NCBI GenBank assembly: GCA_964535515.1
Contig: CAZHTA010000004.1
Location: 27,888-68,377, forward strand
Direction: 5' to 3'
From: an uncultured Gammaproteobacteria bacterium
GTDB lineage: Bacteria; Patescibacteriota; Patescibacteriia; Magasanikbacterales; GWA2-37-8
DNA length: 40,490 bases
Below the pieces are notes generated by a model, which was not told the origin of the DNA, made no database searches, and was given only the letters and a program-made list of their open reading frames with translations. Below, piece after piece: positions 3,799-36,561 of this stretch; position 1 is the first letter of the stretch; every line of letters starts with the position of its first letter. The position numbers and the translations under genes are program-made.

Positions 3799-3823
3799 TT
3801 GGTAAATACTTTTATATATCTGT

Positions 3824-4384
3824 ATGTTTAATGAAAGTGAGGCTAAATATATTTTAGACTTGGCACGTCGCTCCATTGAGTTTTATTTTAAAAATCAAGA
3901 ATTGTTGGTAGTTAATGAGACGGAAGTACCGGTGGGTAGGTTAAAAGAAAAGTTAGCTTGTTTCGTTACTTTGACAATTGGAGGAGAGTTGCGTGGTTGT
4001 ATTGGTCGCACGGAAGCAACTCAATTTTTATATTTAGATGTTATTGAAAATGCGGCGTTAGCCGCGTTTAATGATCCACGTTTTGCGCCATTGTCTGAGG
4101 AGGAATTAGAAAAGGTTAAGATCGAAGTATCAGTTTTGTCAGTAGCGCAACCGGTAGATTTTACTAACACAGAGGAATTATTAAAAAAGTTACGTCCGGG
4201 CATTGATGGTGTTGTTATTAAACGTGGCAGCCAATGGGCGACATATTTGCCACAAGTTTGGGAGGAGTTACCTGTTAAAGAAAAGTTTTTGAATTCTCTT
4301 TGTGAGAAAGCCGGTCTTCCTTTAGATGATTGGCAAAAAGCGGGTATTGAAGTGTTGGTATATCAAGTTGAGGTGATTGAATAG
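3824..4384 (+). CDS. AMMECR1 domain protein
   Basis: LACFVTLTIGGELRGCIGRTEA and PRFAPLSEEELEKVKIEVSVL are AMMECR1 hallmarks. Confidence 0.85.
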   Translation: MFNESEAKYILDLARRSIEFYFKNQELLVVNETEVPVGRLKEKLACFVTLTIGGELRGCIGRTEATQFLYLDVIENAALAAFNDPRFAPLSEEELEKVKIEVSVLSVAQPVDFTNTEELLKKLRPGIDGVVIKRGSQWATYLPQVWEELPVKEKFLNSLCEKAGLPLDDWQKAGIEVLVYQVEVIE

Positions 4385-4392
4385 TAAAAATA

Positions 4393-4401
4393 TGGTATAA
4401 T
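4393..4401 (+). promoter_or_regulatory. Extended -10 (TGgTATAAT) ending 6 nt before the ATG at 4408; implies a leaderless mRNA
   Basis: tatggtataatgtttttATG. No SD is possible in the 6-nt gap. Confidence 0.45.
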
Positions 4402-4407
4402 GTTTTT

Positions 4408-6518: not shown

Positions 6519-7973
6519 ATGAAACAAGACTATATCCTCAAACAGCGCAAAAAGAACATGTATATTTTCCCTAATGTTTTTGTGATTGGGCGGGTTTTTA
6601 CGGGCAGTTTGAACAAAATATTGAATGGTAAGAATTTTGGAGAAACAATGTGTATTTACAAGGACGATATGATGTATTGGTATGCTTCGGATAGTATGGT
6701 AAAAGCGGCGGCGCAAGAATTTTTTAAGAAATTAAAAAAGAATTCAAATTTTGTTTCTTCGTCTATTCGTATTTTTTCTAAACGTAGTAATTTTTTTCTG
6801 TCTTGGGTAAAAAAAGTTAGTAAGAGGGATTTATCAAAAATGACCAACAAGGAGCTGGATGTTTTTTGGGATAAGTATTTAGAGCTCTATGAGTCTAGCT
6901 ATATCTATAGTGAAGCATTGGTAATTTGTTTTGAAGAATACCTTTCTGGTCTTTTGTCTTCGTATTTAAAGAAATTAGTAAAAAGTGATACTGAAGCATC
7001 TCGGGTTCAAAATGTTCTTGCTTCGCCTTTGGAAAAATCATTTGTGAAAAGAGAAGAAGATGATTTGTTGAATTTGGCGTTAAAGATTAAAAACGGCAAG
7101 GTGAAGGATGTAGAATTGGCGTTAGAAAAACACGTGGAGAAGTATCAATGGGTGCCGTTTGATTATGGTATGTATATTTGGGATAAAAAATATTTTAAAA
7201 AGATTTTGCAAGGGATGTTAAAAAATGCAGATTTAGAGAATCGGATTGTGGCTAGTAAGAAATATTTGAAGTATTTGTCTTTGGAACAGTTGCGTTTAGA
7301 AAAGGAATTAAAGATTGACAAGCAATACAAAAAATATTTTATGGCGATGCGCCAGACGGGGTATTTGTTAGATTACAAAAAGGAAATTTTTACCCAGATA
7401 CATTTTTATGCAGAGAAGGTATTGGCGGAGACAGGTAAACGTTTGGGTGTAAAAAGAGATCTGGTGCAATATTATTTGCCAGGAGAAATCAAGACTGCCT
7501 TAAAGGAAGGTAAAGTGGTTGGCAAGAAAATATTAGAAGCGAGACAAAAACATTGTTATGTTCGTTGGTTTGATAATAGTATCGAAGCAGTGATAGACAA
7601 GCCGGATAGTTTGTTGGCTAAATTTTTATTAAAAGAAGATCCGACTTCAGCTAAATTTGAGGGTATTATTGCTTCGGCGGGAAAATGTATTGGAAAGGTA
7701 AAGATTTTACATAGTGCGTTAGAAGTAGACAAGGTGAAATTGGGTGATATTTTAGTTGCACCAATGACTAGTCCAGATTATGTTCCGGCGATGCGTTTGG
7801 CTGGGGCAATTATTACTGATGAGGGCGGGGTGATGTGTCACGCGGCGATTGTGTCGCGTGAATTAGGTATCCCGTGTGTGGTTGGTACGAAAAATGCCAC
7901 AAAGTTTTTACATGACGGTGACGAAGTGGAAGTGGATGCTAATCATAATTCGGTGAGGATAATTCGCAGATAG
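6519..7973 (+). CDS. Swivel-domain paralog 1: uncharacterised N-terminal domain + C-terminal PEP-utilizer (phosphohistidine) mobile domain
   Basis: The C-terminus GDILVAPMTSPDYVPAMRLAGAIITDEGGVMCHAAIVSRELGIPCVVGT aligns with the E. coli PpsA His-domain (GGRTCHAAIIARELGIP). The N-terminal part carries KHVEKYQWVPFDYG. Confidence 0.85.
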   Translation: MKQDYILKQRKKNMYIFPNVFVIGRVFTGSLNKILNGKNFGETMCIYKDDMMYWYASDSMVKAAAQEFFKKLKKNSNFVSSSIRIFSKRSNFFLSWVKKVSKRDLSKMTNKELDVFWDKYLELYESSYIYSEALVICFEEYLSGLLSSYLKKLVKSDTEASRVQNVLASPLEKSFVKREEDDLLNLALKIKNGKVKDVELALEKHVEKYQWVPFDYGMYIWDKKYFKKILQGMLKNADLENRIVASKKYLKYLSLEQLRLEKELKIDKQYKKYFMAMRQTGYLLDYKKEIFTQIHFYAEKVLAETGKRLGVKRDLVQYYLPGEIKTALKEGKVVGKKILEARQKHCYVRWFDNSIEAVIDKPDSLLAKFLLKEDPTSAKFEGIIASAGKCIGKVKILHSALEVDKVKLGDILVAPMTSPDYVPAMRLAGAIITDEGGVMCHAAIVSRELGIPCVVGTKNATKFLHDGDEVEVDANHNSVRIIRR

Positions 7974-7974
7974 C

Positions 7975-9411
7975 ATGTTAAATAGCAGCGATTCAAAACA
8001 TATTCGTGAAACTAATTGGTATCGCCAAGGTGGGGCGATTAATTTGTTTTATTGTTTTAGTCCGTTTCAATCTATTCGCGAAACCATTGGTTATGATGGT
8101 TGTATTATGTATCAAGAGGATGCTGTTAATACTGCTTTTTTTGAACGAGACAGAGAGGATAAGTTAGCACTTAAATTTATCCGAGCAAGCGGGGAAGACA
8201 AATATTTGGTGGACAGATGGATAAGCGTTTGGCGTATACGCATATTAAAGTTAAATAAGTTTTTAGATAAAAGTTTTTCTAAACCATTGGAAACGTGGTC
8301 TGATGCGGAGTTGGTTAATTTTTTCCATCGTTATGATCATTTGGCTTTAAGTCATTGGAAGAAGGGTGTTTTGTGTGAATGGACTGACCCTAATGGCTGG
8401 AATATAGTAAAGACGGAGGCTTTAAAATATTGCCCTAATCTTAGTGATGAAGATATTAATCTGTTAACATCACCAGAAAAGTTAACTGTAGTGCAGAAAG
8501 AATTAGTTGATCGGTTGGTTTTAATGAAAAAACAAAAGCAGGGTTTAAGTATTGAGCGCGAGCTTAAGAAACATGTTAGTAAATATTTTTGGATTCGCAA
8601 TAATTGGGCGTTTGTTTATGATTTAAAAGAAAAAGATTTTCAAAAGGTTATTAACAAAGAAATGTTAAAGTTGGAGAAAGTTGAAAGACAAGTGAAAGAA
8701 ATTAATGAATATATACGTGAGATTAAGAAAAAGAAAAAGATTTTAATCAAGAAAAAATCAGTACCACGTAAAGTACAAAATGTTTTTTACTTTTTTACTC
8801 AATTAACCGATTGGCGCGATGAGAGGAAAAAATTTGCTGCTTGTTTGCCAAATCATTATTTATATAAAATATTGAAAGTATTGGCGAAGAGAAATAATAT
8901 TTCTGAGGAGTTGGTTGGTTTATTAATATGGTTTGAAATTAGTGGTTGGAAATTATCTGTAAAAACAATAGATAATTTAAAAAGACGAGGGCAGGGCTGG
9001 ATCTATTATTGTCGTAAAAATAAACAATGCCAACAAGTTTATGGTAGTGAGGCAAAAAAGATTTTTAATGATTTGGTTAAGGCGTTAGATAAAGGTGAAT
9101 TGCGAGGGTTAATAGCAAACAAGGGTGTTGTGATTGGTAAAGCGAAGATTGTGGAAGTACAAGCTGATTTTAGTAAAGTAAAAAAAGGGGATATTATTGT
9201 TGCTAACATGACGCGCCCAGATTATGTACCGATTATGAAATTGGCAGGTGGAATAATTACCAATGAGGGAGGGATTACTTGTCACGCGGCAATTGTTAGT
9301 CGTGAGTTAAATATTCCTTGTATAATTGGGACACAGGTGGCTACGGATGTTTTAAAAGACGGTGATGTTATAGAAGTTGATGCGGATAATGGTGTAATTA
9401 GAAAAAAATAA
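7975..9411 (+). CDS. Swivel-domain paralog 2
   Basis: GDIIVANMTRPDYVPIMKLAGGIITNEGGITCHAAIVSRELNIPCIIGT. N-terminal motif KHVSKYFWIRNNWA. 1-nt gap to the upstream gene. Confidence 0.85.
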   Translation: MLNSSDSKHIRETNWYRQGGAINLFYCFSPFQSIRETIGYDGCIMYQEDAVNTAFFERDREDKLALKFIRASGEDKYLVDRWISVWRIRILKLNKFLDKSFSKPLETWSDAELVNFFHRYDHLALSHWKKGVLCEWTDPNGWNIVKTEALKYCPNLSDEDINLLTSPEKLTVVQKELVDRLVLMKKQKQGLSIERELKKHVSKYFWIRNNWAFVYDLKEKDFQKVINKEMLKLEKVERQVKEINEYIREIKKKKKILIKKKSVPRKVQNVFYFFTQLTDWRDERKKFAACLPNHYLYKILKVLAKRNNISEELVGLLIWFEISGWKLSVKTIDNLKRRGQGWIYYCRKNKQCQQVYGSEAKKIFNDLVKALDKGELRGLIANKGVVIGKAKIVEVQADFSKVKKGDIIVANMTRPDYVPIMKLAGGIITNEGGITCHAAIVSRELNIPCIIGTQVATDVLKDGDVIEVDADNGVIRKK

Positions 9412-9414
9412 TTT

Positions 9415-10890
9415 ATGCAAGATATTAATAGGTTGACTGAGAAAGATTGGTATTTTCAAGGGTTCAATGGTGTCCCAGCTCTTTTGTATGGTCCCGCTTG
9501 GTCTATGGCGCGTGATATGCCAAAATTTTTAGGTTTTGGCTATTCTGTTTGTGTTGAATATTTCACTAAGGATGTTTGTTATTATCTATATTCTTGGGAT
9601 GATTTATATAAAATTCATGATGAATTATTAAAACGTGTTAAACGCGACAAAAATTATTTGCGTTATTTATCAAAATCAGATGAATGTTTATGTAAAGAAG
9701 TGATTAAAGAATATAAAATTTTAGGTGGGAAAGATTGGTGCAGTGCTTCCATAAAAGAATTATTTTCGGGTTGGCGTAAAGCCAATGATTTATATGCGCA
9801 TCTTTTAGGGGTTTCGCATATTGTAGAAGGGTTTAGTTTAACCACAGAAGATCGAATTAGAGCTTTGATTAATGAAGTTTTTCCTAATGATTCCGGAGCT
9901 TTGTCGTTGCTCACTACTCCCAAGACGCATTCTTTTATGTCTATTGAGCACTATGAGTTATGTTTAATAGCTCATGGTGTTAAACGTATTAAATTGGGTA
10001 AGTGTACTGTTGAAAATATTTTGGTTAATAAGGTGATAAATAAAAAAATATGTCTTCATCAGGAGAAATATTATTGGAAATTAAATGGTTATACGTCGGC
10101 TAAGTTTCTAGACGACAAGTATTTTGCCAAAGAAATATGTGGTTTGTTAAACAAGAAAGTTAATTTTGAAAAATTTATTCATGATTTTGAAAATTTGTCC
10201 AAAAGATTAGATGGAAAAAAGAAACTTCTTAAAAAAGTGAAAAATCAAGAATTACTTGATTTATTAAAAATTTCTGATGCGTTGTTTGTGATCCACGATC
10301 GTCGTAAAGAGCATATGACGCAATCAATTACTTATTTGGAATTAATTTTAAGTGAGATTGCTAAGCGATTTAAAATACCTTTATCTGATTTGCACTATAT
10401 TCGTCCGTCAGAGTTAGAAAAGTTACCTAAGATTTGGTCGGAGTTAAAAAAGAGGAAAGAACATAGCATATACATTTTATATCCAGAAGGAGAGATGCCA
10501 GTATTAACTGGTTTAAAAGCAAAAAAATATTTTGAAAAAATTGAAAAGAATAAAAAATTAGATAAGATTTCGGAGATTAAAGGGAATGGTGCGTCGCCAG
10601 GAAAAGTAAGAGGCGTAGTTAAGGTGTGCCGCGGTGAAAAAGAATTAGGTAAAATGAAAGAAGGAGATATTCTCGTGGCGTGTATGACACAGCCTGAATT
10701 TTTACCGGCTTTGAGAAAAGCTAAGGCCGTCATTACTGATGAGGGTGGTTTGACTTGTCATGCTGCGATAGTGGCAAGGGAGTTAGGAATTCCTTGTGTG
10801 ATTGGAACAAAAGTAGCTACTAAAGTTTTAAAAGATGGTGATATGGTAGAAGTTGATGCGGATAATGGTATAATTAGGAGAATAAAATAG
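9415..10890 (+). CDS. Swivel-domain paralog 3
   Basis: GDILVACMTQPEFLPALRKAKAVITDEGGLTCHAAIVARELGIPCVIGT. N-terminal motif HQEKYYWKLNGYT. Confidence 0.85.
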   Translation: MQDINRLTEKDWYFQGFNGVPALLYGPAWSMARDMPKFLGFGYSVCVEYFTKDVCYYLYSWDDLYKIHDELLKRVKRDKNYLRYLSKSDECLCKEVIKEYKILGGKDWCSASIKELFSGWRKANDLYAHLLGVSHIVEGFSLTTEDRIRALINEVFPNDSGALSLLTTPKTHSFMSIEHYELCLIAHGVKRIKLGKCTVENILVNKVINKKICLHQEKYYWKLNGYTSAKFLDDKYFAKEICGLLNKKVNFEKFIHDFENLSKRLDGKKKLLKKVKNQELLDLLKISDALFVIHDRRKEHMTQSITYLELILSEIAKRFKIPLSDLHYIRPSELEKLPKIWSELKKRKEHSIYILYPEGEMPVLTGLKAKKYFEKIEKNKKLDKISEIKGNGASPGKVRGVVKVCRGEKELGKMKEGDILVACMTQPEFLPALRKAKAVITDEGGLTCHAAIVARELGIPCVIGTKVATKVLKDGDMVEVDADNGIIRRIK

Positions 10891-10892
10891 TT

Positions 10893-10926
10893 CTTTAAAA
10901 CACAAGCACCCGACCGAAGTCGAGTG
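10893..10926 (-). terminator. Intrinsic terminator of the island gene
   Basis: The minus strand reads CACTCGAC-TTCG-GTCGGGTG followed by CTTGTGTTTT. It starts 35 nt after the stop codon. Confidence 0.6.
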
Positions 10927-10960
10927 CGTTGTGCACGTTGTTGGGGCCTGCTCCAATGAG

Positions 10961-11452
10961 CTAGGCCAGTCGCGTCGCGGTACCGTCGCCGAGGTGGAGC
11001 TCGTACACGGCGCTGCTCGCAGCCTCGAGCTTGAGGCTCTCGAGCACCGGACGTCCGGCCACGAGGACGACGTCCGGGCTGCCCTCGGCGAGGATCAGCA
11101 TGCCGTACGTTTCCCGCAGGTGCATGAGCGTGGCTTCGCGGGACGGCATTCGGAACCGGTCCAACGTCGTCTGCGCGTTGCAGGCGAGCGCGATGTTCCA
11201 CCCTCCGTTGCCGTTGGGGACGCCCGAGCTGGGGTCACCCAGCATGGGATCGTACCACTCGATCTCCTGGAAGATGTCCAGCGCCTCGGCCGTGTCGATG
11301 TGACGCCGGGCGGTCCCGCAGAAGACTCGACGCTTGTCGGGGAGGGGCAGGTGCGGTACGAGCCGTTCGATCTCGCTTCTTCCTTTGCTCGTGAGACCGG
11401 GGTCCGCACCGGGACCCTTCGAACCGTGGGTGATCAATAGGACTCGCGCCAT
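10961..11452 (-). CDS. SixA/PGAM-like histidine-phosphatase-fold protein (163 aa) with degenerate catalytic motifs; high GC3
   Basis: MARVLLITHGSKGPGADPGLTSKGRSEIERL...RRVFCGTARRHIDTAEAL follows the RHG...LTxxGRxQ...SPxxRAxxTA pattern. It has THG in place of RHG and VLVAGRPV in place of the distal SH motif. AGGAGAA lies 6 nt upstream of the ATG at 11452. The 198-aa track ORF is an upstream extension. Confidence 0.6.
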   Translation of the reverse strand: MARVLLITHGSKGPGADPGLTSKGRSEIERLVPHLPLPDKRRVFCGTARRHIDTAEALDIFQEIEWYDPMLGDPSSGVPNGNGGWNIALACNAQTTLDRFRMPSREATLMHLRETYGMLILAEGSPDVVLVAGRPVLESLKLEAASSAVYELHLGDGTATRLA

Positions 11453-11473
11453 CTCTCGTTCTCCTATGGTTGT

Positions 11474-11488
11474 GCGACACGCTGTCGC
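11474..11488. promoter_or_regulatory. Inverted repeat GCGACA-CGC-TGTCGC in the 5' region of the island gene (operator or hairpin candidate)
   Basis: Perfect 6-bp arms with a 3-nt spacer, about 20 nt upstream of the SD on the minus strand. Confidence 0.3.
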
Positions 11489-11605
11489 TTGGTCCCAAAT
11501 AAACGTGCAGTTTGTTTCAGATAGTGCTCGGATTTGGTTAAATCCAGGCAAAATCATGGTACCAAACGTTTCAGTATAGTATATTTTCGCTGTTTTGTCA
11601 ATATT

Positions 11606-13087
11606 ATGTACAAATCACCTCAATTTAAATCAAATAAACTAGAACTTACGGTTAGTCGTCCGTATGTTCCTTTGTGTGCTAACTATTTTTTCCAAAGCTA
11701 CAGTAATCCAGAATATTTTAAGAAGTTTTATAAAATTAACTTTTTTACTCGTTTATTAGCAATTAATGCGGATTTTTATTATGGCCTAGAAGCAAAAGAT
11801 TTTGGCTATGTTCTTTTTGGACAAGCGGCAAAGTATGGTAGTCATAGTAAAATTAAAAAGAAAAATCTTAAGGGTATTTTGCACATTTTTGATCGGACCT
11901 ATAAATTTGGTGATTCGTTATTGGAATTTACTTTGCAAGTTAAGAAAACAGATTTTTCTGAATATTCAAAGAAGCAATTATTAGAGGTGTTTGGAAAATT
12001 TTCGAAAGATTATGTTGTTTTTTGTACTGCTTTATTGGGTATGAATATGCAGTATGTTGTCGAAGATGGTTTGCGTGAGTTTCTACGAAGTGATAAAAAC
12101 GCAGAAGAGGAGCTTGCGATTTTGACTTTTCCTGATAAACAAAATGTTCTTGTTCAAGAACTAATGGACTTATTGCGTTTACGAATTAAATTAGAAAAAG
12201 TTGGTGTTAAGAATTTGGAAAAATGTAAGACCAAGGAGCTTGGCTTACTAAAGAAGCATGTTGATAAGTACGGTTGGATCAATGCTCGTGGTGCCATTAA
12301 TGAAGGATGGACGGTAAAAGAGGTTTTTGATCGGGCGATGGCAGAAAAGAATTGTGCTAAACGTTTGGTTGAGATAGTTAAGAATCAAAAAGAGCATCAA
12401 AAACAAGTTCGAGATATATTTAAAACAAAAAAACCTAATGCGGAAATTAGGGATTTAATAAAAATCGCCAAAGAGCTGGTATATTTTCGCACCTACCGTA
12501 CAGATTATCTTAATTGGATGTTTTTTAATATTCGTCCTTTATTAAATGCGTTGGCAGGTAAGATGGGTATTAGTTTTGAGGATATTATATATTATCTACC
12601 AAAAGAAATCATGACTAAGAAAAAAGTGTCTGAAAAAGAGGTTGTTCGTCGCAAGGAAGGTTACGCGATATTGTTAGCTAAACCTTATGAGGTATTATTC
12701 TCCTCTGATCCTAAGAAAATATTGGAATGGAAAAAGAAACATACTGAGGTATTAGGTGGCAATGTTACGGAAGTTAAGGGTATGTCTGCATACAAAGGTA
12801 TTGTTCGTGGTAAGGCTGTGTTGGTATTGAAAAAGGCTGATATGGTAAAGGTTAAGTCGGGGGATGTTTTAATCACTTTTATGACTACGCCAGATATGGT
12901 ATCGGTTATGCAGAAAGCAATAGCGTTTGTTACTGATGAGGGTGGTATTACATGCCATGCGGCGATTGTAGCACGGGAGATGAAGAGACCGTGTGTAACA
13001 GGGACCAAAATTGCTACTAAGGTTTTTAAAGATGGCGATGAAGTAGAAGTGGATGCGAATACTGGTGTAGTGAAAATTATTAAATAA
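11606..13087 (+). CDS. Swivel-domain paralog 4 (ATG 11606 preferred over the TTG 11534 of the track)
   Basis: GDVLITFMTTPDMVSVMQKAIAFVTDEGGITCHAAIVAREMKRPCVTGT. N-terminal motif KHVDKYGWINARGA. The 5' extension of the track ORF runs into island/intergenic sequence. Confidence 0.85.
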   Translation: MYKSPQFKSNKLELTVSRPYVPLCANYFFQSYSNPEYFKKFYKINFFTRLLAINADFYYGLEAKDFGYVLFGQAAKYGSHSKIKKKNLKGILHIFDRTYKFGDSLLEFTLQVKKTDFSEYSKKQLLEVFGKFSKDYVVFCTALLGMNMQYVVEDGLREFLRSDKNAEEELAILTFPDKQNVLVQELMDLLRLRIKLEKVGVKNLEKCKTKELGLLKKHVDKYGWINARGAINEGWTVKEVFDRAMAEKNCAKRLVEIVKNQKEHQKQVRDIFKTKKPNAEIRDLIKIAKELVYFRTYRTDYLNWMFFNIRPLLNALAGKMGISFEDIIYYLPKEIMTKKKVSEKEVVRRKEGYAILLAKPYEVLFSSDPKKILEWKKKHTEVLGGNVTEVKGMSAYKGIVRGKAVLVLKKADMVKVKSGDVLITFMTTPDMVSVMQKAIAFVTDEGGITCHAAIVAREMKRPCVTGTKIATKVFKDGDEVEVDANTGVVKIIK

Positions 13088-13117
13088 TTTGTTTATATAT
13101 TTTTAACTTATAAAAAT

Positions 13118-14200
13118 ATGGAAAGAGGACCAAGTTTAAGGCCAGAGGATATGCTAGTTGGCAATGATGGGGTGGATCAGAAAGCGCGAGGTGTAATTGA
13201 ATCACGTGATAGCGCCGTAGCTCATAATATTGAGCGTGGGGAAGGCTTATCATCTTCGCGTGTTGTTTTGGAGTTTATGCGTCATGGTAAAAAAGAAAAA
13301 GCGCCAGGCAAAGATGATCGTGATATACGCATTGTTCCGGAAGCGCGTGTGGCAGCAACGGAAAAAGGTAAAAAATTAGGAGCGCAAGCTGAGGTGTCGG
13401 TTGTTTATGCTAGTCCGCGTAACCGTACTCAGGAATCTGCTGGCCGAGTTGCTTTGGGTAATCAATCAGAAATTACTGCGGATATGAGCTTAGAGGATAT
13501 TATGGTTAAAACAATGGAGCATAATGCTATTTTAATGCCTGATCAGTTAGAACGTTTGCGCGAGCTGTTGTCTCATCCAATGGAAGAATTAAATGCTGAA
13601 GAAAAGAAGGAGCTAAAACTTTTGTCGAGTAAAGGTAAAAAAATCATGGTTGATGAACGTTTGGATTTTACTGATGAAACAGAGGAGGGTCTAAAAGCTT
13701 TTATGGCTGGTCGTTATTTAGATCATGCTGTAAAGGATAGTGATCAGTTGGCAATTGCAAAGCATGATACTAAATTATCTACCTATACTCGTTCGGCTGG
13801 TAAGATCGCGGAGATTGTTTCTAAATATATTCAGGTGGGTAAAAATTTTAACAAAAGAGTAAGTGTTGATCCAGAGAAATATAAAAAATTCGGTAATCAA
13901 TTAGAAAGATATTTTGGTTCACACCAAGGTGTTGTAGAATGTTTTTTGTTGAAAGCAATCGAGAAAATAAAAGGTGTAAAAGAGCGTGATGAGATTTTGG
14001 CTTTGATGCCAGCAGGTTTTAAAGAGTTACAAGGTGTAAGGATTGGCATTGAGAACAATGGCAAAGGAGAACAGGTGATTGTTTTAGATGCCGAAGTTGA
14101 AGGAAGAAAGATTAATTTAGAATTAACCCCAGAGATTTTAATGGGTATGGTTAGTGATAGAGATGTGCTGGATGAACAATGTAAGAGTAGTGTGGAGTAA
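13118..14200 (+). CDS. Histidine phosphatase superfamily (PGAM-like) protein with a large internal insertion
   Basis: LEFMRHGKK (RHG), VVYASPRNRTQESA and the distal YFGSHQGVVE (SH motif). About 150 extra residues lie between the two half-sites. Native low GC. Confidence 0.7.
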   Translation: MERGPSLRPEDMLVGNDGVDQKARGVIESRDSAVAHNIERGEGLSSSRVVLEFMRHGKKEKAPGKDDRDIRIVPEARVAATEKGKKLGAQAEVSVVYASPRNRTQESAGRVALGNQSEITADMSLEDIMVKTMEHNAILMPDQLERLRELLSHPMEELNAEEKKELKLLSSKGKKIMVDERLDFTDETEEGLKAFMAGRYLDHAVKDSDQLAIAKHDTKLSTYTRSAGKIAEIVSKYIQVGKNFNKRVSVDPEKYKKFGNQLERYFGSHQGVVECFLLKAIEKIKGVKERDEILALMPAGFKELQGVRIGIENNGKGEQVIVLDAEVEGRKINLELTPEILMGMVSDRDVLDEQCKSSVE

Positions 14201-14210
14201 TATTGTTGTT

Positions 14211-15281
14211 ATGTCTATCGTTCCTGATAAATTTTTAAAAGGAGAGTGTTGGCTGAAAGATTGGGCGGGTCAGTGGGATCTTTTTATTTGTTTTTATTCA
14301 GGAGAAGATTATACCACCTTACTTAAAAAGTGGTTGGGTATTAATTTTGATAAATGTCTTTTTATTTATCACGATGGGTTTGTGGAGTGTTATTTAAATA
14401 AAAGATGTTTAGATATTTTGGGTAGAGAGATTAACGCGAGGGTTAAAGAGGATGTTTTGTGGATTGATAGGAATTGTAAAGATCTTAAAAAGAATACACA
14501 AATTTTCCTAAAATATTTTGCTGAGCATAAAAACGATTTGGTTGCGGAAGAGACATTGAAGAAGTTTTTGCAGTTGGTTAGCAATTGTTTTGCTGCGTAT
14601 ATTTCTAATAAATTAGCATTTGATTATTTGTCAGCAGATATATTAAAGAAAAAATGGAATGTGATGGAATCGGCACGTGTATACTCAGAATCGGTTTATA
14701 CGGCGTGTATAGAGTTTGTTCACAATTGGGGTAAACAAATGGCGAAAAAAGTTAAGATACCAAAGGATCTCTTTCTTTGTTGTTCGTTAAATGAAATTGA
14801 AACTTATTATCGATCGGGTAGATTACCAAGTGTTAGCGAGTTAAAGCGACGGTATTCGTTTAATGTGATACTTTCACAGAATGGTCAGAGTTTTTTATTG
14901 ACTGGCTCAGAGGCTAAGGCTGTTGAGAAAAAGATTATTAGTTCATTTGGCGACAGTAAAACCATTAAAGGCACCTGTGCCTATCCGGGGAAAGTAACGG
15001 GGCGGGTTAGAATTGTTTTTGATCCTAAAAAGATAAAAGATTTTAAAGATGGGGATATCTTGGTAACACCGATGACGCGACCGGAGTATCTTTCTCTAGT
15101 TAAAAAATCCGCTGGTTTTATTACTGATGCTGGCGGTATGCTTTCTCACGCCGCTATTACAGCGCGCGAGTTAAAGAAGCCGTGCGTGGTAGGTACCCAA
15201 GTGGCTACGCGTTTGTTAAAAAATGGAGATGAGGTGGAAGTGGATGCCAACAAAGGGATAGTTAATGTGATTAAAAGATAA
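14211..15281 (+). CDS. Swivel-domain paralog 5 (short, 356 aa; ATG 14211 preferred)
   Basis: GDILVTPMTRPEYLSLVKKSAGFITDAGGMLSHAAITARELKKPCVVGT. Confidence 0.85.
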   Translation: MSIVPDKFLKGECWLKDWAGQWDLFICFYSGEDYTTLLKKWLGINFDKCLFIYHDGFVECYLNKRCLDILGREINARVKEDVLWIDRNCKDLKKNTQIFLKYFAEHKNDLVAEETLKKFLQLVSNCFAAYISNKLAFDYLSADILKKKWNVMESARVYSESVYTACIEFVHNWGKQMAKKVKIPKDLFLCCSLNEIETYYRSGRLPSVSELKRRYSFNVILSQNGQSFLLTGSEAKAVEKKIISSFGDSKTIKGTCAYPGKVTGRVRIVFDPKKIKDFKDGDILVTPMTRPEYLSLVKKSAGFITDAGGMLSHAAITARELKKPCVVGTQVATRLLKNGDEVEVDANKGIVNVIKR

Positions 15282-15288
15282 TGATTTT

Positions 15289-16839
15289 ATGAAGGTGCTA
15301 AAAACTTTTCCTTTGGCTTTGACCAAAAAAACTGCTAGTCAGTTTAATAAGGCGTTTCATGCCAAGTTATTTACTTTGTTTGCTTCTTCGATGAGTGAAC
15401 TAATGCAGTTGGCTAAGGATTTTCCTGTGCATTATAAACATTGTTTGTGTTTTATTAAAGATGATTTAGGCCAGTGGTTTTTGGGCGCAGATAGCATCGA
15501 AAGAGTTAGGCGGTATATCATAAAAAAAGCTGATGAGGATTTTTCTCAGATAAATAAATATTATTTACGTTGGCAGAAAGACTGGGGTAAGTTTTTAATA
15601 TTAAACAGAAAATTAATTAGTTCAGATTTTAGTTCTTTGACTGACAAGCGGTTGTATAAAGTTTTTGATGAGTTTTATGATCTATATTTAAAAGTAGGTG
15701 GTGTGGCATATATTAGTGATGCCTTTATGTCCTCTGGGGAAAAAGATTGGCTGCAAGAGGTTATAAACCAAGAATTAAAACGCATTTATAAAGATATTGA
15801 AAAAGTAAAAAGGGTGGCGGCGGATTTGATTTCGCCAGTTCATCTTTCTTTTGTTTTGGAAGAAGAACTTGAATTATTAAAACTAGCTCCGGCGTTTATT
15901 AATCTTACTGGTAAATTGGTGGGTTTTAATAAGTTGTCCGCTAAACAACTAGCGCAGCTGGAACGTCATGCTGACAAATATTATTGGATGAATAATAACT
16001 ACTATAACGTAGAATTTTACGATGCATTTTCAGTATATACACATCTGGTCAATCTTTTAGATGGTTTGCAACAAGAAAAACGTAGCCTTAGTGATTTTTT
16101 GGCGGAGAGACAGCGCGAATTAAAGGAAAATAAAACGAGGCGTGAGGGGTTGATTAGTGATATTAAGCTACCAAAAAAGATTAAGAGCTTAATTCGGGTA
16201 GCTAATTTGTTTAGCAAGTGGAAAGACGTTCGGAAAAGTGGTGTGTATCGTGGCATGGCAATTTTTGATAAATTTTTGGGCGAGATAGCAATGCGTACTG
16301 GTTATACAAAAAAGGAAATTACTTTTTTAGTTTTTCCGGAGTTCAAGGATTTATTGTTAAATAGAAAAGATTTTCGGTTGGTTATAAAAGATCGTCAAAA
16401 GCAAATATTTTTTGTGGTGCGTCCGCACGACTATCTTTTGGTTAGCGGTCAAAAGGCGGATAAATATTTTGCTTGTTTGTCCGAAGGACTCAATGCTGAG
16501 ATGAAAGAATTCAAAGGAGCAGTGGCCTCCAAAGGAATCGCGCGCGGGGTGGTGCGGATGATAAGGAAAACAGAAGAGATGAAAGACTTTAAAAAAGGTG
16601 AAATTTTAGTTACCAACAATACTACACCAGAGTTTGTTCCAATCATGAAAAAGGCCGCAGCGATCATTACTGAACAAGGTGGTATAACCTCACATGCTGC
16701 TGTAGTTTCGCGTGAATTGCGTAAGCCGTGTATTATTGGTGTTAAAGGTATTACAACCATTTTAAAAACAGGGGTAGAGGTTGAAGTAGATGCTAATCAT
16801 GGTATAATTAAGATTATTAATAAAAGTTTAAAGAAATAA
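15289..16839 (+). CDS. Swivel-domain paralog 6
   Basis: GEILVTNNTTPEFVPIMKKAAAIITEQGGITSHAAVVSRELRKPCIIGV. N-terminal motif RHADKYYWMNNNYY. Confidence 0.85.
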   Translation: MKVLKTFPLALTKKTASQFNKAFHAKLFTLFASSMSELMQLAKDFPVHYKHCLCFIKDDLGQWFLGADSIERVRRYIIKKADEDFSQINKYYLRWQKDWGKFLILNRKLISSDFSSLTDKRLYKVFDEFYDLYLKVGGVAYISDAFMSSGEKDWLQEVINQELKRIYKDIEKVKRVAADLISPVHLSFVLEEELELLKLAPAFINLTGKLVGFNKLSAKQLAQLERHADKYYWMNNNYYNVEFYDAFSVYTHLVNLLDGLQQEKRSLSDFLAERQRELKENKTRREGLISDIKLPKKIKSLIRVANLFSKWKDVRKSGVYRGMAIFDKFLGEIAMRTGYTKKEITFLVFPEFKDLLLNRKDFRLVIKDRQKQIFFVVRPHDYLLVSGQKADKYFACLSEGLNAEMKEFKGAVASKGIARGVVRMIRKTEEMKDFKKGEILVTNNTTPEFVPIMKKAAAIITEQGGITSHAAVVSRELRKPCIIGVKGITTILKTGVEVEVDANHGIIKIINKSLKK

Positions 16840-16840
16840 T

Positions 16841-17827
16841 ATGCCAAAAGTTTCTCATATTAAGTTTTTTAAGAATATCTCTAAAAGTGATGTTGATATT
16901 GCTGGTGGTAAGGGTGCGTCTTTAGGTGAGATGACACAAGCCAAGATTCCAGTACCAAATGGTTTTGTGGTTTTAGCCGCAGCCTTTGATCGTTTTTTAG
17001 AAGAGACACAATTAAAAGAGGAAATTGTGGCACGGCTAAAGGAAGTTAACCCAGAAGATACTAATTCGGTTGATCGTATTAGTGCGGTTATTCGTGATGC
17101 GATTCATGATCGGTCAATGCCTAAAGATTTGCAGAAAGAAATTTTAGGAGCATTTACTAAGTTAGATGCTAAATTTGTGGCTGTACGTTCATCGGCTACA
17201 GCAGAGGACTCATCTGTTGCTAGCTGGGCAGGGGAGCTGGAGAGTTATTTAAATACGAGTAAAAAAGATTTGATTGAACGGGTGCGTCGTTGTTGGTCGT
17301 CGTTGTTTACTCCGCGTGCTATTTTTTATCGTCATGAAAAAGGGTTAATTGACCATTATGTCTCAGTAGCGGTAGTAGTACAAAAAATGGTGCAGTCAGA
17401 AATTTCTGGCATTGCTTTTACTGTTCATCCAGTAACGGAAGATTATGACCAGATGATTATTGAAGCGGGGTATGGTTTGGGTGAAGCGATTGTCTCTGGA
17501 CAAATTACACCTGATAGCTATGTGATTAGCAAGGGTAGTATGGAGATTATGGATACTTATGTTAGTTCACAAGCTCGTCAGTTAATTCGTAAGAAATCTG
17601 CTAAGAGCAAAGGGGATGAAGAAAACACTTCAAATGAGTGGGTAAATTTAGGTAAAAAAGGTGAAAAACAAAAGGTCGACAACAAAACGGTCTTGGCCCT
17701 GGCCAAAGTATTTAAACGGATTGAGGACCATTACAAGTTTCCGTGTGATATCGAATGGGCTATGGAAAAGAAAAAAATATATATTACCCAAAGTCGTCCG
17801 ATTACTACTTTAAAGAAGAAAAAGTAG
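16841..17827 (+). CDS. Stand-alone PpsA/PPDK N-terminal ATP-grasp (nucleotide-binding) domain protein
   Basis: Collinear with E. coli PpsA residues about 1-345: GGKGASLGEM, IPVPNGFVV, VAVRSSATAEDS..SWAGE, AVVVQKMV, GIAFTVHP, EAGYGLGEAIVSG and DIEWAMEKKKIYITQSRPIT. It ends there, with no His or TIM-barrel domain. 1-nt gap to paralog 6. Confidence 0.9.
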   Translation: MPKVSHIKFFKNISKSDVDIAGGKGASLGEMTQAKIPVPNGFVVLAAAFDRFLEETQLKEEIVARLKEVNPEDTNSVDRISAVIRDAIHDRSMPKDLQKEILGAFTKLDAKFVAVRSSATAEDSSVASWAGELESYLNTSKKDLIERVRRCWSSLFTPRAIFYRHEKGLIDHYVSVAVVVQKMVQSEISGIAFTVHPVTEDYDQMIIEAGYGLGEAIVSGQITPDSYVISKGSMEIMDTYVSSQARQLIRKKSAKSKGDEENTSNEWVNLGKKGEKQKVDNKTVLALAKVFKRIEDHYKFPCDIEWAMEKKKIYITQSRPITTLKKKK

Positions 17828-24331: not shown

Positions 24332-24641
24332 ATGTATCCTTTGTCCCACTGCGCTCTGGATCGAACGATCCTGGGCGGGGGGGCACGGGCCTCTTCAGTC
24401 GTTGCGCTCGATCGGCTCGCCGTCGGACTCGGTGCGTACGCGATGGTGTGCGCCAGCCCAGGTGCGAAGAACGCCGCGACTGCCTTCGGTGCCACGAAGA
24501 TGTCGCACAGACGGCGGGGTCGAGACGTCTTTGGCTTTGGCCGCACGTTCGAGGATCTCTTCCCAGCAGTCCGCGCACGGAGCCGTTTCCGAACAGTCCG
24601 GATTGTTGCAAGGCATTATGATGCCCTTTCAAAAGTTGAAG
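24316..24641. other. High-GC compositional island 2
   Basis: 42/60 G+C counted at 24421-24480. The 8-mer GATAAAAC occurs on both sides (24308-24315 and 24642-24649). Confidence 0.8.
24395..24616 (-). CDS. Small (73 aa) Cys-rich hypothetical protein, C-x4-C-x5-C-x2-C at the N-terminus; high GC
   Basis: MPCNNPDCSETAPCADCWEEILERAAKAKD... This is the frame with G/C-rich third positions and a protein-like composition. AAAGGG lies 8 nt upstream of the ATG. The other overlapping frames look like high-GC shadows. Confidence 0.5.
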   Translation of the reverse strand: MPCNNPDCSETAPCADCWEEILERAAKAKDVSTPPSVRHLRGTEGSRGVLRTWAGAHHRVRTESDGEPIERND

Positions 24642-33468: not shown

Positions 33469-34830
33469 ATGGAACAGGTGAATATTAAAAGATACAAAGA
33501 TTCTTTTAAGTGGCAGTTTGGTGCTTATCCTTTTTTTACTTCGGTTTTTACTAAATGCGCTGATTTGAAAATTAAAAAGAAACATCATCTTTGTTTTAAT
33601 GAATATATTAGTAATTTTGAAAATGATTCAGTAACAGCGTTTATTCCATGGGAAGTTTTTGAAACACCTGGTAGGAAGATTATTAAAAAAATACTAGCAG
33701 GGGACAAGTATTATTATAACGAAATAAAAAGAACACATAGTGCAGTTAAAAAAGCTATTGCAGCATGTTTGTTGGCGCGGTCTAAAAATGTTAATGAATT
33801 GGGTAGGTGGTGGAGATTAACTCAGGATGCGCTATCGGATGTTAGTCGTGTATTATATTCATTTGATTTTACTTTTGATTTATTTTTAAATGAATTAAGA
33901 GCGAAGGATCAGGATTTGTTTGTGGTGTTGTTAGAGAATATAAAAACAAAAGAAAAATCTTTTCTTGAGGAAGCCTCGGCTAAGTTGTTAAAATTAAAAT
34001 CAGAAAGCAGTGATTTTAAAAAGGTCTATATTAAATTTGTTAAAGAGTTTGGGTGGTTTCAAAATAGTTATAGAGGAGTTTTTAAATTCGATGAGACTTG
34101 GTTGAAACAGTATTTAAAAAATATTTTGCAGCCAAATAAAAAGGACAAAGCAAAGGCGCCGGGCGTTGTTCCGTCTAAATACAAGTTATTAGTTAAGTTG
34201 GCGAAAGAAACGATAGTGTTTAGAGATGACAAGAAAAAATTATTACTAGTCGCAGCAGATGTGATGGATAGTTGGCTAAGGAGAGTTTGCAAAGAACACG
34301 GTTGGTCTTTTGAAGCAATGCGTTGGTTAACAGTAGATGAGATATTGGATGTAATAGAAAATGGTAATAAAAAGAATTTGGTGTTGGCAGAAAAATATTA
34401 CAAAGCCAAGCGACGCATTGGTGTTATGGTCAGTACAGGTTATTTAGATATTAGTAAAAAAGATTGGGACAAAATATATTTGTTGTACTTTACTTCTAAG
34501 AGTGGTTTGGTAAAAGGATTGGCAGCTAACAAAGGTGTCTATAGAGGAACGGTGCGAGTAATTTTAGATCCAGTGAAGGATGCAAAAAAGTTTTATCCAG
34601 GAGATGTTTTAGTCGCCTCGATGACTCGTCCGGAGTATATTAGTCTAATGAGTAAGGCGGGTGCTTTTGTGACTGATGAAGGTGGAATATCTTGTCATGC
34701 TGCTATTGTGGCTAGAGAAATGGGGAAGCCGTGTATTATTGGCACCAGAAATGCTACTAAGATGTTAAAGGATGGTGATTTTGTGGAGGTGGATGCTAAT
34801 ATTGGAATTATTAAAGTCGTTAAAAATTAA
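33469..34830 (+). CDS. Swivel-domain paralog 7
   Basis: GDVLVASMTRPEYISLMSKAGAFVTDEGGISCHAAIVAREMGKPCIIGT. N-terminal motif FVKEFGWFQNSYRG. Confidence 0.85.
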   Translation: MEQVNIKRYKDSFKWQFGAYPFFTSVFTKCADLKIKKKHHLCFNEYISNFENDSVTAFIPWEVFETPGRKIIKKILAGDKYYYNEIKRTHSAVKKAIAACLLARSKNVNELGRWWRLTQDALSDVSRVLYSFDFTFDLFLNELRAKDQDLFVVLLENIKTKEKSFLEEASAKLLKLKSESSDFKKVYIKFVKEFGWFQNSYRGVFKFDETWLKQYLKNILQPNKKDKAKAPGVVPSKYKLLVKLAKETIVFRDDKKKLLLVAADVMDSWLRRVCKEHGWSFEAMRWLTVDEILDVIENGNKKNLVLAEKYYKAKRRIGVMVSTGYLDISKKDWDKIYLLYFTSKSGLVKGLAANKGVYRGTVRVILDPVKDAKKFYPGDVLVASMTRPEYISLMSKAGAFVTDEGGISCHAAIVAREMGKPCIIGTRNATKMLKDGDFVEVDANIGIIKVVKN

Positions 34831-34843
34831 TTTACGATTGTAA

Positions 34844-35461
34844 ATGATTATGAATAAGTCTTTTATCTTTGATTGGTCTGGGACGCTAAGTGACAATTTC
34901 AACTGCTTTTGTAAAGTGTGTGATTTGATGTTTCCGGAATTAGGGCGAGAAAAAATTACTCCTGAAGAAATTAGGAAGGAGTTTACTTTACCGTATATGT
35001 CTTTTTGGAATAAATATTTTCCGGAATTATCCCAAGAAAAACAATGTGGAATGTATGTAAAATATATTCATCAGGTTGGTAATCCGAATCTTTATCCGGG
35101 TGTAAAAGAAGTAATTACAGCATTGCATGGCGGTGGTCATAAGATATTTATTGCAAGTTCCGATCCAGAATCAAAGATAACAGAAGAAATTGAAGCTTCA
35201 GGTTTAAAGGATTTTTTAAGTGGGTATTATTTTGAATTACAAGATAAGACTGAAAAGATTATGGAGCTGGTTAATAATACGCCTTTAGATATTAACAGTA
35301 CTTACTATATTGGTGATACTTTTGGTGATGTTGAGATGGGTAAAAAAGCGGGTGTTAAAACAGTTGGTATTTCTTGGGGGTTTCAGAGTCGTGAGGGTTT
35401 GGCTCTGAGTAAACCGGATTTTTTAATTGATGATATTTTAGAGATTAAAAATATTATATAA
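34844..35461 (+). CDS. HAD-superfamily hydrolase-fold protein with atypical motif I (DWSGT)
   Basis: Motif I is FIFDWSGTL, with Ser at Asp+2. Also IASSD (motif II-like) and YIGDTFGDVEMGKKAGV (motif IV). Confidence 0.75.
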   Translation: MIMNKSFIFDWSGTLSDNFNCFCKVCDLMFPELGREKITPEEIRKEFTLPYMSFWNKYFPELSQEKQCGMYVKYIHQVGNPNLYPGVKEVITALHGGGHKIFIASSDPESKITEEIEASGLKDFLSGYYFELQDKTEKIMELVNNTPLDINSTYYIGDTFGDVEMGKKAGVKTVGISWGFQSREGLALSKPDFLIDDILEIKNII

Positions 35462-35466
35462 ATTTT

Positions 35467-36561
35467 GTGCGTTCAGTATTGAATACAATTAAAAAATTTG
35501 ATTTAGAAGTGGCCACTAAAAGACCTCTACCTTTGTTTACCTTGAGTTGTATAGGGAAAACCTATGTGGATGTATTAAAAAAGAAATATTTTAAGTGTAA
35601 TTATGAGGCTGTAGCTGGTTGGGGTGATAAAAATGGTTTTGTATCTTTACTTAATGAAGAGGCGGTGGTGGATACAATGGCAAATAAGTTAAAAAAAGAA
35701 AAAGATATAAAAAAGAAGTTTGTGGTACCTCTACAAACCAATTTTGTAAAGTTTAAGAAAGAATTTAATGTATTGTTGTCTAATTTGGGAAGAAAGAATG
35801 CGTTGTTAAGTTTAAAACTTTTGTCTAAGTATTATATTGACTATCTCGTGATCTTAGGTAGCTTGAATTGTCTTTGGCGATATATTGGTGATAACGCCGT
35901 AACAAAGTGTAACAAAAAAGACATTGAATATTTTGCCAAAGCCAGGGGAAATGTTGCAGAAATATATCCGCAGATGGAAGGGGCTCTTTCTTTGTTGTGT
36001 AACAAAATTGGTGAGCAGCAAAAATTTGACGGCGATTTGTTGCGATATTTTACTCGCGCAGAGTTAGATAATTTTTTAGACAAAAAGGAATTGTTAAATT
36101 TGGAAAAGCAACAAAAGTTAAAGAAGAGGAAAGTTGGATATTTTTATATTTACACTAAAAATACTGAAGAAGTTGTAACTGAGGACAACGTTTTAATAAA
36201 AAAGATCAAACAGTTTGCACTTAAAAATAGCCAGCCCAAGTCAGGATTAAAAGGTACAGTTGTTTATCTAGGCAAGGTAGAAGCAAAGGTGTTTAATTTT
36301 GATCAAAATTTTAAGAAAGCACCTGCTGGTAAATTTATTTTGGTAACACACATGACTCATCCTAAAGATTTAACGTTGATTAAAAAATCACTAGGGATAA
36401 TTACTGATGAAGGGGGAGTGTTGTGTCATGCGGCGATTATGGCGCGTGAACTCAAGAAGCCGTGTATAATTGGTACAAAGGTGGCTACGCAATTATTAAA
36501 AACCGGTATGAGTGTTGAATTAGATTGTTACAAAGGAACTATTAAAATAATTAAAAAATAA
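35467..36561 (+). CDS. Swivel-domain paralog 8 (GTG start; short, 364 aa)
   Basis: GKFILVTHMTHPKDLTLIKKSLGIITDEGGVLCHAAIMARELKKPCIIGT. Confidence 0.8.
   Translation: MRSVLNTIKKFDLEVATKRPLPLFTLSCIGKTYVDVLKKKYFKCNYEAVAGWGDKNGFVSLLNEEAVVDTMANKLKKEKDIKKKFVVPLQTNFVKFKKEFNVLLSNLGRKNALLSLKLLSKYYIDYLVILGSLNCLWRYIGDNAVTKCNKKDIEYFAKARGNVAEIYPQMEGALSLLCNKIGEQQKFDGDLLRYFTRAELDNFLDKKELLNLEKQQKLKKRKVGYFYIYTKNTEEVVTEDNVLIKKIKQFALKNSQPKSGLKGTVVYLGKVEAKVFNFDQNFKKAPAGKFILVTHMTHPKDLTLIKKSLGIITDEGGVLCHAAIMARELKKPCIIGTKVATQLLKTGMSVELDCYKGTIKIIKK

Follow-up and report, generated by a model that had tools for sequence, protein, structure and literature searches.

A stand-alone ATP-grasp protein as the putative shared charging subunit of a split RPH-like dikinase in Magasanikbacterales

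A 40,490-nt stretch of DNA (hereafter the window; contig CAZHTA010000004.1, positions 27,888-68,377, assembly GCA_964535515.1, lineage Magasanikbacterales GWA2-37-8) encodes a 328-aa ATP-grasp protein that is probably the common charging subunit of a split dikinase of the rifampin phosphotransferase (RPH) type, serving several carrier proteins. We use the term carriers, numbered W1-W8, for the window proteins with a C-terminal phosphohistidine swivel domain. The window has a GC content of about 37%, and its + strand holds nearly every gene. Domain identities, folds, motif conservation, the gene arrangement together with its conservation, and natural fusions could all be observed directly; we infer that more than one carrier is charged in trans, that the reaction has the stoichiometry of a dikinase, and that the substrates are small-molecule hydroxyls. 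Sharing of the subunit in trans is well supported on comparative grounds, though not proven. The ATP-grasp gene and the carrier genes are as follows.

6519..7973, + strand: W1, 484 aa, first gene of the array (PF00391, E 1.2e-26; 66% orthologue P0242)
7975..9411, + strand: W2, 478 aa (PF00391, E 7.6e-26; 71% orthologue in L086)
9415..10890, + strand: W3, 491 aa (PF00391, E 4e-28; orthologues of 82% in L086 and 58% in L009)
11534..13087, + strand: W4, 517 aa as called (PF00391, E 1.4e-23; 57% collinear 493-aa orthologue in L086)
14154..15281, + strand: W5, short type, 375 aa as called (PF00391, E 3e-25; AlphaFold2 model with a predicted local distance difference test score, pLDDT, of 83.6)
15289..16839, + strand: W6, 516 aa, with a helical substrate-binding domain like that of RPH and a C-terminal His swivel (GGITSH, His469)
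16841..17827, + strand: stand-alone ATP-grasp (PPDK_N) subunit, 328 aa, ATG start (PF01326)
33469..34830, + strand: W7, 453 aa, remote from the array (PF00391, E 4.8e-25)
35467..36561, + strand: W8, short type, 364 aa (PF00391, E 9.6e-23)

Sequence analysis revealed that the 328-aa protein matches Pfam PF01326 (PPDK_N) with E 1.1e-95 over residues 19-327, which cover positions 2-315 of the 328 in the model. It is collinear with the N-terminal domain of the phosphoenolpyruvate (PEP) synthase 8a8e (E 1e-71 in a comparison with PDB sequences), in which the corresponding domain stops at ...QSRPITTLKE, residue 364 of 817, and it aligns to positions 2-336 of the 784 in NCBIfam PEP_synth. It is likewise collinear with the N-terminal domain of RPH (5fbs/5hv1, E 7e-50), and residues 6-328 match the free ATP-grasp protein HpeI (9goj, E 7e-49). 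The terminus, ...QSRPITTLKKKK, is the exact end point of the PpsA ATP-grasp domain, in agreement with an earlier sequence-only reading of this DNA, which had described a protein collinear with the PpsA N-terminal domain and stopping past QSRPIT; the last letters before the stop codon are ...YITQSRPITTLKKKK. The start 1 nt past the upstream stop, also claimed there, is equally real: the spacer between W6 and the ATP-grasp gene consists of the T at 16840, flanked by TAA at 16837-16839 and ATG at 16841. Furthermore, a six-frame phmmer search yielded no second ATP-grasp in the window even at E<=10, and a swivel-domain hidden Markov model run on six frames, together with a motif scan, yielded exactly eight open reading frames (ORFs) with a His domain. 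The gene content of the window is therefore one ATP-grasp to eight carriers, and the description of this gene as the only ATP-binding module for eight His-domain proteins holds for the window. An SPFH/Band_7 gene follows 25 nt downstream, so the ATP-grasp gene is not strictly the last of the co-oriented block. By these alignments, the 328-aa protein is complete and constitutes the nucleotide-binding half, encoded by a gene of its own, of a His-swivel dikinase.

The stand-alone form is widespread in the candidate phyla radiation (CPR). In a search of 5.8 billion proteins, each of the best 120 homologues carries PF01326 alone, with lengths of 313-413 aa and identities of 65-100%, and the named entries among them are Candidatus Magasanikbacteria or other Patescibacteria. 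A locus scan with one genome per species returned 80 related loci, from many CPR classes and a few archaeal-labelled metagenome-assembled genomes (MAGs), that carry the ATP-grasp at 58-90% identity. In 79 of these 80 loci the ORF stands alone at 287-380 aa, one being truncated by a contig end; in the exception, L055, the ATP-grasp is joined to a short carrier. In an alignment of 82 CPR orthologue sequences, 34% of the positions are at least 95% identical, and the motifs GGKGASLGEM, VAVRSSATAED, DIEW and QSRPITTL are each conserved at 95% or more. Because stand-alone orthologues of 310-380 aa with intact motifs occur throughout the CPR, nearly always next to co-oriented swivel-protein arrays, the gene is, on comparative grounds, not a fragment of PpsA. 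The MAG records L004, L006, L007, L012 and others are titled 'uncultured Gammaproteobacteria bacterium' despite encoding proteins 70-95% identical to those of the Magasanikbacteria-like window, and these titles look like mislabelled taxonomy.

The carriers are 364-517 aa long, each with the swivel at its C-terminus. W1-W6 form an array that occupies 6519-16839, directly upstream of the ATP-grasp gene, and W7 and W8 lie 15.6-18.7 kb downstream of it. Two of the called starts are probably too early. For W4, ATG 11606 is probably the true start, because the resulting 493 aa equal the length of its orthologue; for W5, ATG 14211, giving 356 aa, is probably correct because residues 1-22 of the model are disordered (pLDDT <50), and this start would abolish the overlap with the upstream phosphatase gene. 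The catalytic swivel His, within a T/SxxGGxxxH loop, is present in all eight window carriers and invariant in a 97-sequence alignment. The eight swivels share a mean pairwise identity of 51% (42-61%) and the remainder 24.5%. The best PDB sequence match of the swivel is PEP synthase 9dae (E 4e-25), and scanning all eight N-terminal regions gave no Pfam match. Aligned to RPH, a profile built from the eight carriers covers residues 632-865, which comprise the swivel and the final ~130 aa of the rifampin-binding domain. In agreement, AlphaFold carrier models (pLDDT 95 and 84) match only RPH among solved folds beyond the swivel, and the top six Foldseek PDB matches of the W5 model are the six RPH entries. 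RPH Arg666, Glu667 and Lys670 correspond in the alignment to the carrier motif [R/K/H]-D-x-[R/K]-K. W2, W3, W6 and W7 have the whole motif, W1 and W4 have part of it, and the short W5 and W8 retain just the Arg; across 97 W6-type and related sequences, D313, R315 and K316 of this motif are at least 90% conserved. In RPH, the second phosphotransfer requires Arg666 and Glu667, whose hydrogen-bond network also includes Lys670 (PMC4844700). The substrate domains of the carriers span ~260-410 aa. W6 represents a conserved 'core' carrier, whose subfamily is present in the CPR and in DPANN archaea.

The PEP/pyruvate-binding TIM-barrel domain PF02896 was matched by none of the proteins scanned. Neither the window nor 1.34 Mb of related loci contains G[ST]ND[LIVM]xQ, the PROSITE signature of PEP-utilizers_C. 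The window proteins reach 340 and 122 bits against the NCBIfam PEP synthase models, whose cut-offs are 598-740, and against RIF_Ptrans_rph (cut-off 999 bits) the ATP-grasp scores 273 and W6 scores 65. The ATP-grasp and swivel sequences nonetheless score best against true PEP synthases. Since the carriers match only RPH beyond the swivel, and no PEP/pyruvate domain was found nearby, the system as read from sequence and models is a split RPH-like small-molecule dikinase and not a PEP synthase in pieces. To see the gene as half of PpsA was therefore the wrong frame, given partners that carry an RPH-type substrate domain. Separately, precomputed PF02350 annotations suggested UDP-GlcNAc 2-epimerase fusions in P0281, P0317, P0345 and others; these are spurious, the weak match overlapping the swivel in every case.

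The gene arrangement was compared across the loci. None of the 80 has a second ATP-grasp within +-10 kb. Among the 40 full-flank loci, defined by at least 8 kb on both sides of the ATP-grasp, 37 have 1-7 carriers within 10 kb, with a median of 3, and nearly all of these carriers share the strand of the ATP-grasp. In 25 of the 40, a carrier lies no more than 300 bp from the ATP-grasp. The place of the ATP-grasp in the array varies by genome, being first, internal or last, and a spacing of at most 20 nt between it and one carrier is common. The proposal that its end-of-operon position brings translational coupling to the carriers thus survives in part: such close spacing makes coupling to the immediate neighbour plausible, but the end position is not conserved and is uninformative for the other seven carriers. 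Among close relatives, the number of carriers beside a single ATP-grasp ranges from 0 in L004 through 5 in L001 and 6 in the window to 14 on contig SRR22388057_31833 (L085 plus L086). The relative on that contig has a 92% identical ATP-grasp and Band_7, zinc-finger and MnmA neighbours of 86-98% identity. Its L086 part contains collinear orthologues of W1, W2, W3, W4 and W6 (66, 71, 82, 57 and 83% identical), and nine more carriers of this relative have no counterpart in the window. Under a strict threshold, the 191 carriers across the loci fall into 96 clusters. Carriers therefore appear to diverge faster than the ATP-grasp, with large gains and losses in addition, and not to turn over totally; near-complete non-orthology of the carrier repertoires between close relatives is ruled out by the collinear W1-W4 and W6 orthologues in L086. 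In that locus, an interval at 3403-4798, absent from the window, holds a 205-aa ORF and an AbiEii toxin-type gene between the TrwB-like gene and the first carrier.

Natural fusions join the same parts. ATP-grasp and carrier form single chains in L055 (673 aa), P0321 (829 aa) and P0335 (820 aa), the latter two being among the homologues of W1. Tandem-carrier proteins (P0206, P0211) occur as well, as do a carrier fused to a HAD phosphatase (P0351), a weakly supported carrier-methyltransferase fusion (P0277) and an XRE-type helix-turn-helix (HTH) domain fused to a carrier (P0292). In a single protein cluster, P0175, a cytidylyltransferase-like nucleotidyltransferase is joined to a W6-type carrier; the solved structures nearest to it are those of ethanolamine-phosphate cytidylyltransferase and of the 143-aa protein 3glv. 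This one cluster suggests that W6-type products are nucleotidylated afterwards, and the fusions to enzymes whose targets are phosphomonoesters or small molecules favour small-molecule substrates.

Homology with RPH and HpeHI enables us to propose a putative charging cycle. Initially, ATP would be bound by the ATP-grasp protein. The swivel of a carrier would then dock transiently, and its conserved His would take the beta-phosphate, while the gamma-phosphate leaves as inorganic phosphate and AMP remains. Afterwards, the phospho-swivel would return to the helical RPH-type substrate-binding domain of the same carrier. Finally, an [R/K]-[D/E]-x-x-K motif, the counterpart of RPH Arg666-Glu667...Lys670, would orient the phosphohistidine, and the phosphate would pass to a small-molecule hydroxyl. 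The substrate pocket would differ from carrier to carrier, with the conserved ATP-grasp as the hub. An ATP-grasp that evolves slowly and is locally single-copy, conserved swivels, substrate domains that diverge fast and vary in number, and occasional fusion of the parts make up the pattern expected of one ATP-grasp docking many swivels. The sequence-only reading had already argued from the 1:8 gene content for a shared, trans-acting subunit; the single ATP-grasp, its stand-alone form in 79 of the 80 loci, the arrays of up to 14 carriers and the fusions fit that proposal, in which the step of trans-charging stays at the level of inference.

Several observations weigh against a shared subunit. 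In L004, the nearest relative in the collection of genomes, the ATP-grasp is 90% and the flanking proteins are 86-95% identical to those of the window, and no carrier lies within 10 kb; the carriers of L004 may be encoded elsewhere in its genome, or its ATP-grasp may have another role. One related MAG possesses two ATP-grasp loci, 86% identical and each with its own carriers, which may reflect a duplication or a mixed bin. The fusion proteins represent carriers with a dedicated ATP-grasp. Just four window carriers out of eight have the full RPH-type catalytic motif, and the two short ones retain only the Arg. Moreover, the count of a single ATP-grasp covers the window, and further ATP-grasp genes may be encoded elsewhere in the genome.

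An unlikely alternative is a dedicated pair, in which the ATP-grasp serves W6 alone and the remaining carriers use ATP-grasps encoded elsewhere or other phosphoryl donors. Every characterised split dikinase is such a 1:1 pair, and HpeH alone is able to move phosphate between substrates. W6 is also the tightly coupled neighbour across the 1-nt spacer and the best-conserved carrier, with an 83% orthologue and a distribution across the CPR and DPANN, and the MAG with two ATP-grasp loci would fit too. However, not one of the 80 loci has a second ATP-grasp within 10 kb, against up to 7 carriers (14 in the close relative), and in many loci the adjacent carrier belongs to another subfamily, as the 96 clusters among 191 carriers illustrate. 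Conservation of all eight swivels, at 42-61% pairwise identity, is in turn what docking to one common partner would produce.

It is improbable that the carriers are mostly independent of ATP-grasp charging and act as phosphotransferases, phosphate shuttles or ligand sensors, with the ATP-grasp priming them occasionally or acting separately. The carrier-free vicinity of the ATP-grasp in L004, the short carriers without the full RPH catalytic motif and the ATP-independent phosphotransfer catalysed by HpeH are compatible with such a role, and the HTH fusion P0292 hints at sensing or regulation; the strong co-orientation and adjacency in most loci, the existence of ATP-grasp-carrier fusions and the invariant catalytic His nevertheless speak for charging by the ATP-grasp. 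We give very little credence to a split PEP synthase, in which the ATP-grasp and swivel proteins would make PEP with a separately encoded PEP/pyruvate-binding TIM-barrel protein. The database name 'pyruvate, water dikinase' and the higher scores of both ATP-grasp and swivel against true PEP synthases than against RPH would favour it, but the searches for PF02896 and for the PEP-utilizers_C signature were negative as described above, the carriers have an N-terminal RPH-type substrate domain in the RPH domain order, and 8-14 paralogues would be senseless for a single central reaction. A gene fragment or pseudogene of a broken full-length PpsA or RPH, to which the end exactly on a domain boundary might point, is effectively refuted by proteins of the same length with intact catalytic motifs at 58-90% identity in at least 80 species.

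For the putatively shared ATP-grasp and its carriers, further hints as to function come from phosphatase genes embedded in or close to the arrays.

10961..11452, - strand: small His_Phos-like protein, 163 aa (weak PF00300, E 0.005)
13118..14200, + strand: His_Phos superfamily protein, 360 aa, with an RHG motif, between W4 and W5 (PF00300, His_Phos_1, E 8e-6)
34844..35461, + strand: HAD-family phosphatase between W7 and W8, possibly associated (PF13419, E 6e-21)

The protein at 13118-14200 has homologues of ~300-370 aa within the carrier arrays of L009, L037, L056, L063, L072, L074 and L081, and could be a pathway phosphatase or a phosphatase that 'resets' the phosphohistidine. Homologues of the 10961-11452 gene adjoin ATP-grasp or carrier genes in L026, L040, L046 and L005. 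Taken together, 22 of the 80 loci from the scan contain a His_Phos-like gene, and adding L001 and L002 raises the count to 24. The fusions and the embedded phosphatase genes point to small-molecule metabolism, with salvage or activation by the conserved W6 type, and the variable carriers are possibly engaged in xenobiotic or antibiotic modification. W7 and W8 are surrounded by a cell-envelope cluster with two FemAB genes, a Wzx-like flippase, GT4, GT2 and Wzy_C, and from this gene context their substrates may be envelope precursors. A gene for a Cas4-like PD-(D/E)XK nuclease follows W8 at 36565-37422.

On this basis we put forward, tentatively and as a possibility only, a broader hub-and-spoke platform of CPR bacteria and DPANN archaea. 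One ATP-grasp would charge a changeable set of up to ~14 carriers and thereby replace many single-substrate kinases. The core carrier of the W6 type might make an indispensable phosphomonoester, such as a cofactor or envelope precursor destined for nucleotidylation, and fast-turnover carriers together with phosphatases might handle antibiotics or metabolites of hosts or neighbours.

The small His_Phos-like gene at 10961-11452 coincides with a GC-rich island (10900-11480) of 67% GC, with a GC content at third codon positions of 0.84, against 37% GC for the window. It has its own promoter-like and terminator-like sites; the consensus promoter scan gave 47 sites against 39.6 +- 5.8 in shuffled sequence, which is barely above expectation, and was not relied on. 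GC enrichment also marks the small His_Phos-like homologues and ~210-220-aa His_Phos_1 genes by the ATP-grasp in other loci (gene/locus 0.65/0.40 in L001, 0.62/0.37 in L005 and 0.53/0.36 in L040), and recurrent transfer or nucleotide-level selection could explain it. A second island at 24350-24600, dissimilar to the first, comprises ~250 bp of 62-70% GC with no codon-position bias and lies within a 487-bp gap between a GtrA-like gene and infA that measures only 85-130 bp in relatives. Its + strand folds better than shuffled sequences (z -4.0), and a permissive Rfam scan of it gave chance-level miRNA matches only; the island may represent an insertion or a structured RNA that lacks annotation. 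Over the whole window, Rfam at gathering thresholds and ARAGORN found nothing.

Directly upstream of the carrier array, at 4408-6441, lies a gene for a TraD/VirD4/TrwB-like ATPase whose C-terminal tail is long and of low complexity. Its position is kept in the Magasanikbacteria relatives L001, L004, L011 and L086, and PADLOC gave weak matches of this ATPase to mad8 and HerA. The PADLOC defence models gave no match for the ATP-grasp, three carriers and the His_Phos protein. Further upstream, a radical SAM enzyme (2129-2947) and an AMMECR1 protein (3824-4384), with a DUF2207_C membrane protein between them, recall AmmeMemoRadiSam (no Memo search was made).

The assignment bears on how CPR genomes are read. 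The database names 'phosphoenolpyruvate synthase' and 'pyruvate, water dikinase', routinely given to these genes in CPR MAGs, can wrongly imply gluconeogenic PEP synthesis. A CPR-wide metabolic survey set its PEP synthase cut-offs with extra Pfam domains or manual inspection (PMC7304191), and in another genome paper a PEP synthase gene is simply listed among those of a CPR genome. The ATP-grasp is among the best-conserved proteins of these loci and stands beside large, fast-changing RPH-like arrays, which together represent a major uncharacterised enzyme system of the CPR. Should one ATP-grasp indeed charge many carriers, kinases would be built here in a modular way, from one energy module and interchangeable specificity modules, with relevance to the evolution of reduced genomes, to an antibiotic 'proto-resistome' of RPH-like enzymes and to biocatalytic phosphorylation.

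Among known systems, the closest in architecture are HpeHI of Rhodococcus, CreHI of Corynebacterium and the phenylphosphate synthase PpsAB of Thauera/Aromatoleum. Their separately encoded ATP-grasp subunits, HpeI, CreI and PpsB, are already known (PMC12167813). In each, the free ATP-grasp protein of ~40 kDa and an RPH-like carrier are both required, the complex is transient and the swivel His is essential (PMC12167813); HpeH consists of RPH substrate-binding and swivel domains, and the structure of HpeI is 9GOJ (PMC12167813). The window system likewise combines a free ATP-grasp with partners in which an RPH-like domain precedes a C-terminal His swivel, encoded by adjacent, co-oriented genes. 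However, HpeHI, CreHI and PpsAB are 1:1 pairs for aromatic catabolism in free-living Actinobacteria and Proteobacteria, whereas in the CPR and DPANN organisms, whose metabolism is minimal, one ATP-grasp accompanies six (plus two) carriers in the window and as many as 14 in a relative, and phosphatase genes are embedded in the arrays. By sequence, true PEP synthases are nearer to the window ATP-grasp and swivel than HpeI or RPH are. Carrier matches to the ~600-aa NCBIfam PRK08296 'hypothetical protein' models, which have their swivel at the C-terminus, are confined to the swivel, and no sequence similarity was detectable for the N-terminal domains.

RPH itself (Listeria; 5FBS, 5FBT, 5HV1) shares the ATP-grasp, the helical substrate domain and the swivel, and the order is the same where the parts are fused. 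The wider family of RPH-like dikinases includes the prodigiosin ligases PigC/RedH/HapC. A divergent substrate domain beside a conserved ATP-grasp and swivel, the same pattern as here, was described for RPH (PMC4844700). RPH is a single chain of ~865 aa with a substrate domain of ~430 aa, whereas the window system is split and its substrate domains are shorter. PpsA and pyruvate phosphate dikinase provide the best sequence matches and the same phosphohistidine chemistry; unlike in PpsA, the TIM-barrel domain was not found, the swivel follows a different substrate domain, and the parts are split and multiplied. By analogy only, the arrangement is reminiscent of Enzyme I/HPr of the phosphotransferase system, where one general component feeds many specificity components through a homologous swivel. 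There, the swivel resides in the general component and the donor is PEP, whereas in the window system each specificity subunit has its own swivel, and ATP would be the donor. The searched literature contained no description of a multi-carrier (1:many) arrangement or of swivel-domain arrays in CPR/Patescibacteria. With the split ATP-grasp itself already known, what appears to be new here is a single conserved putative charger beside a variable carrier array, across the CPR and DPANN.

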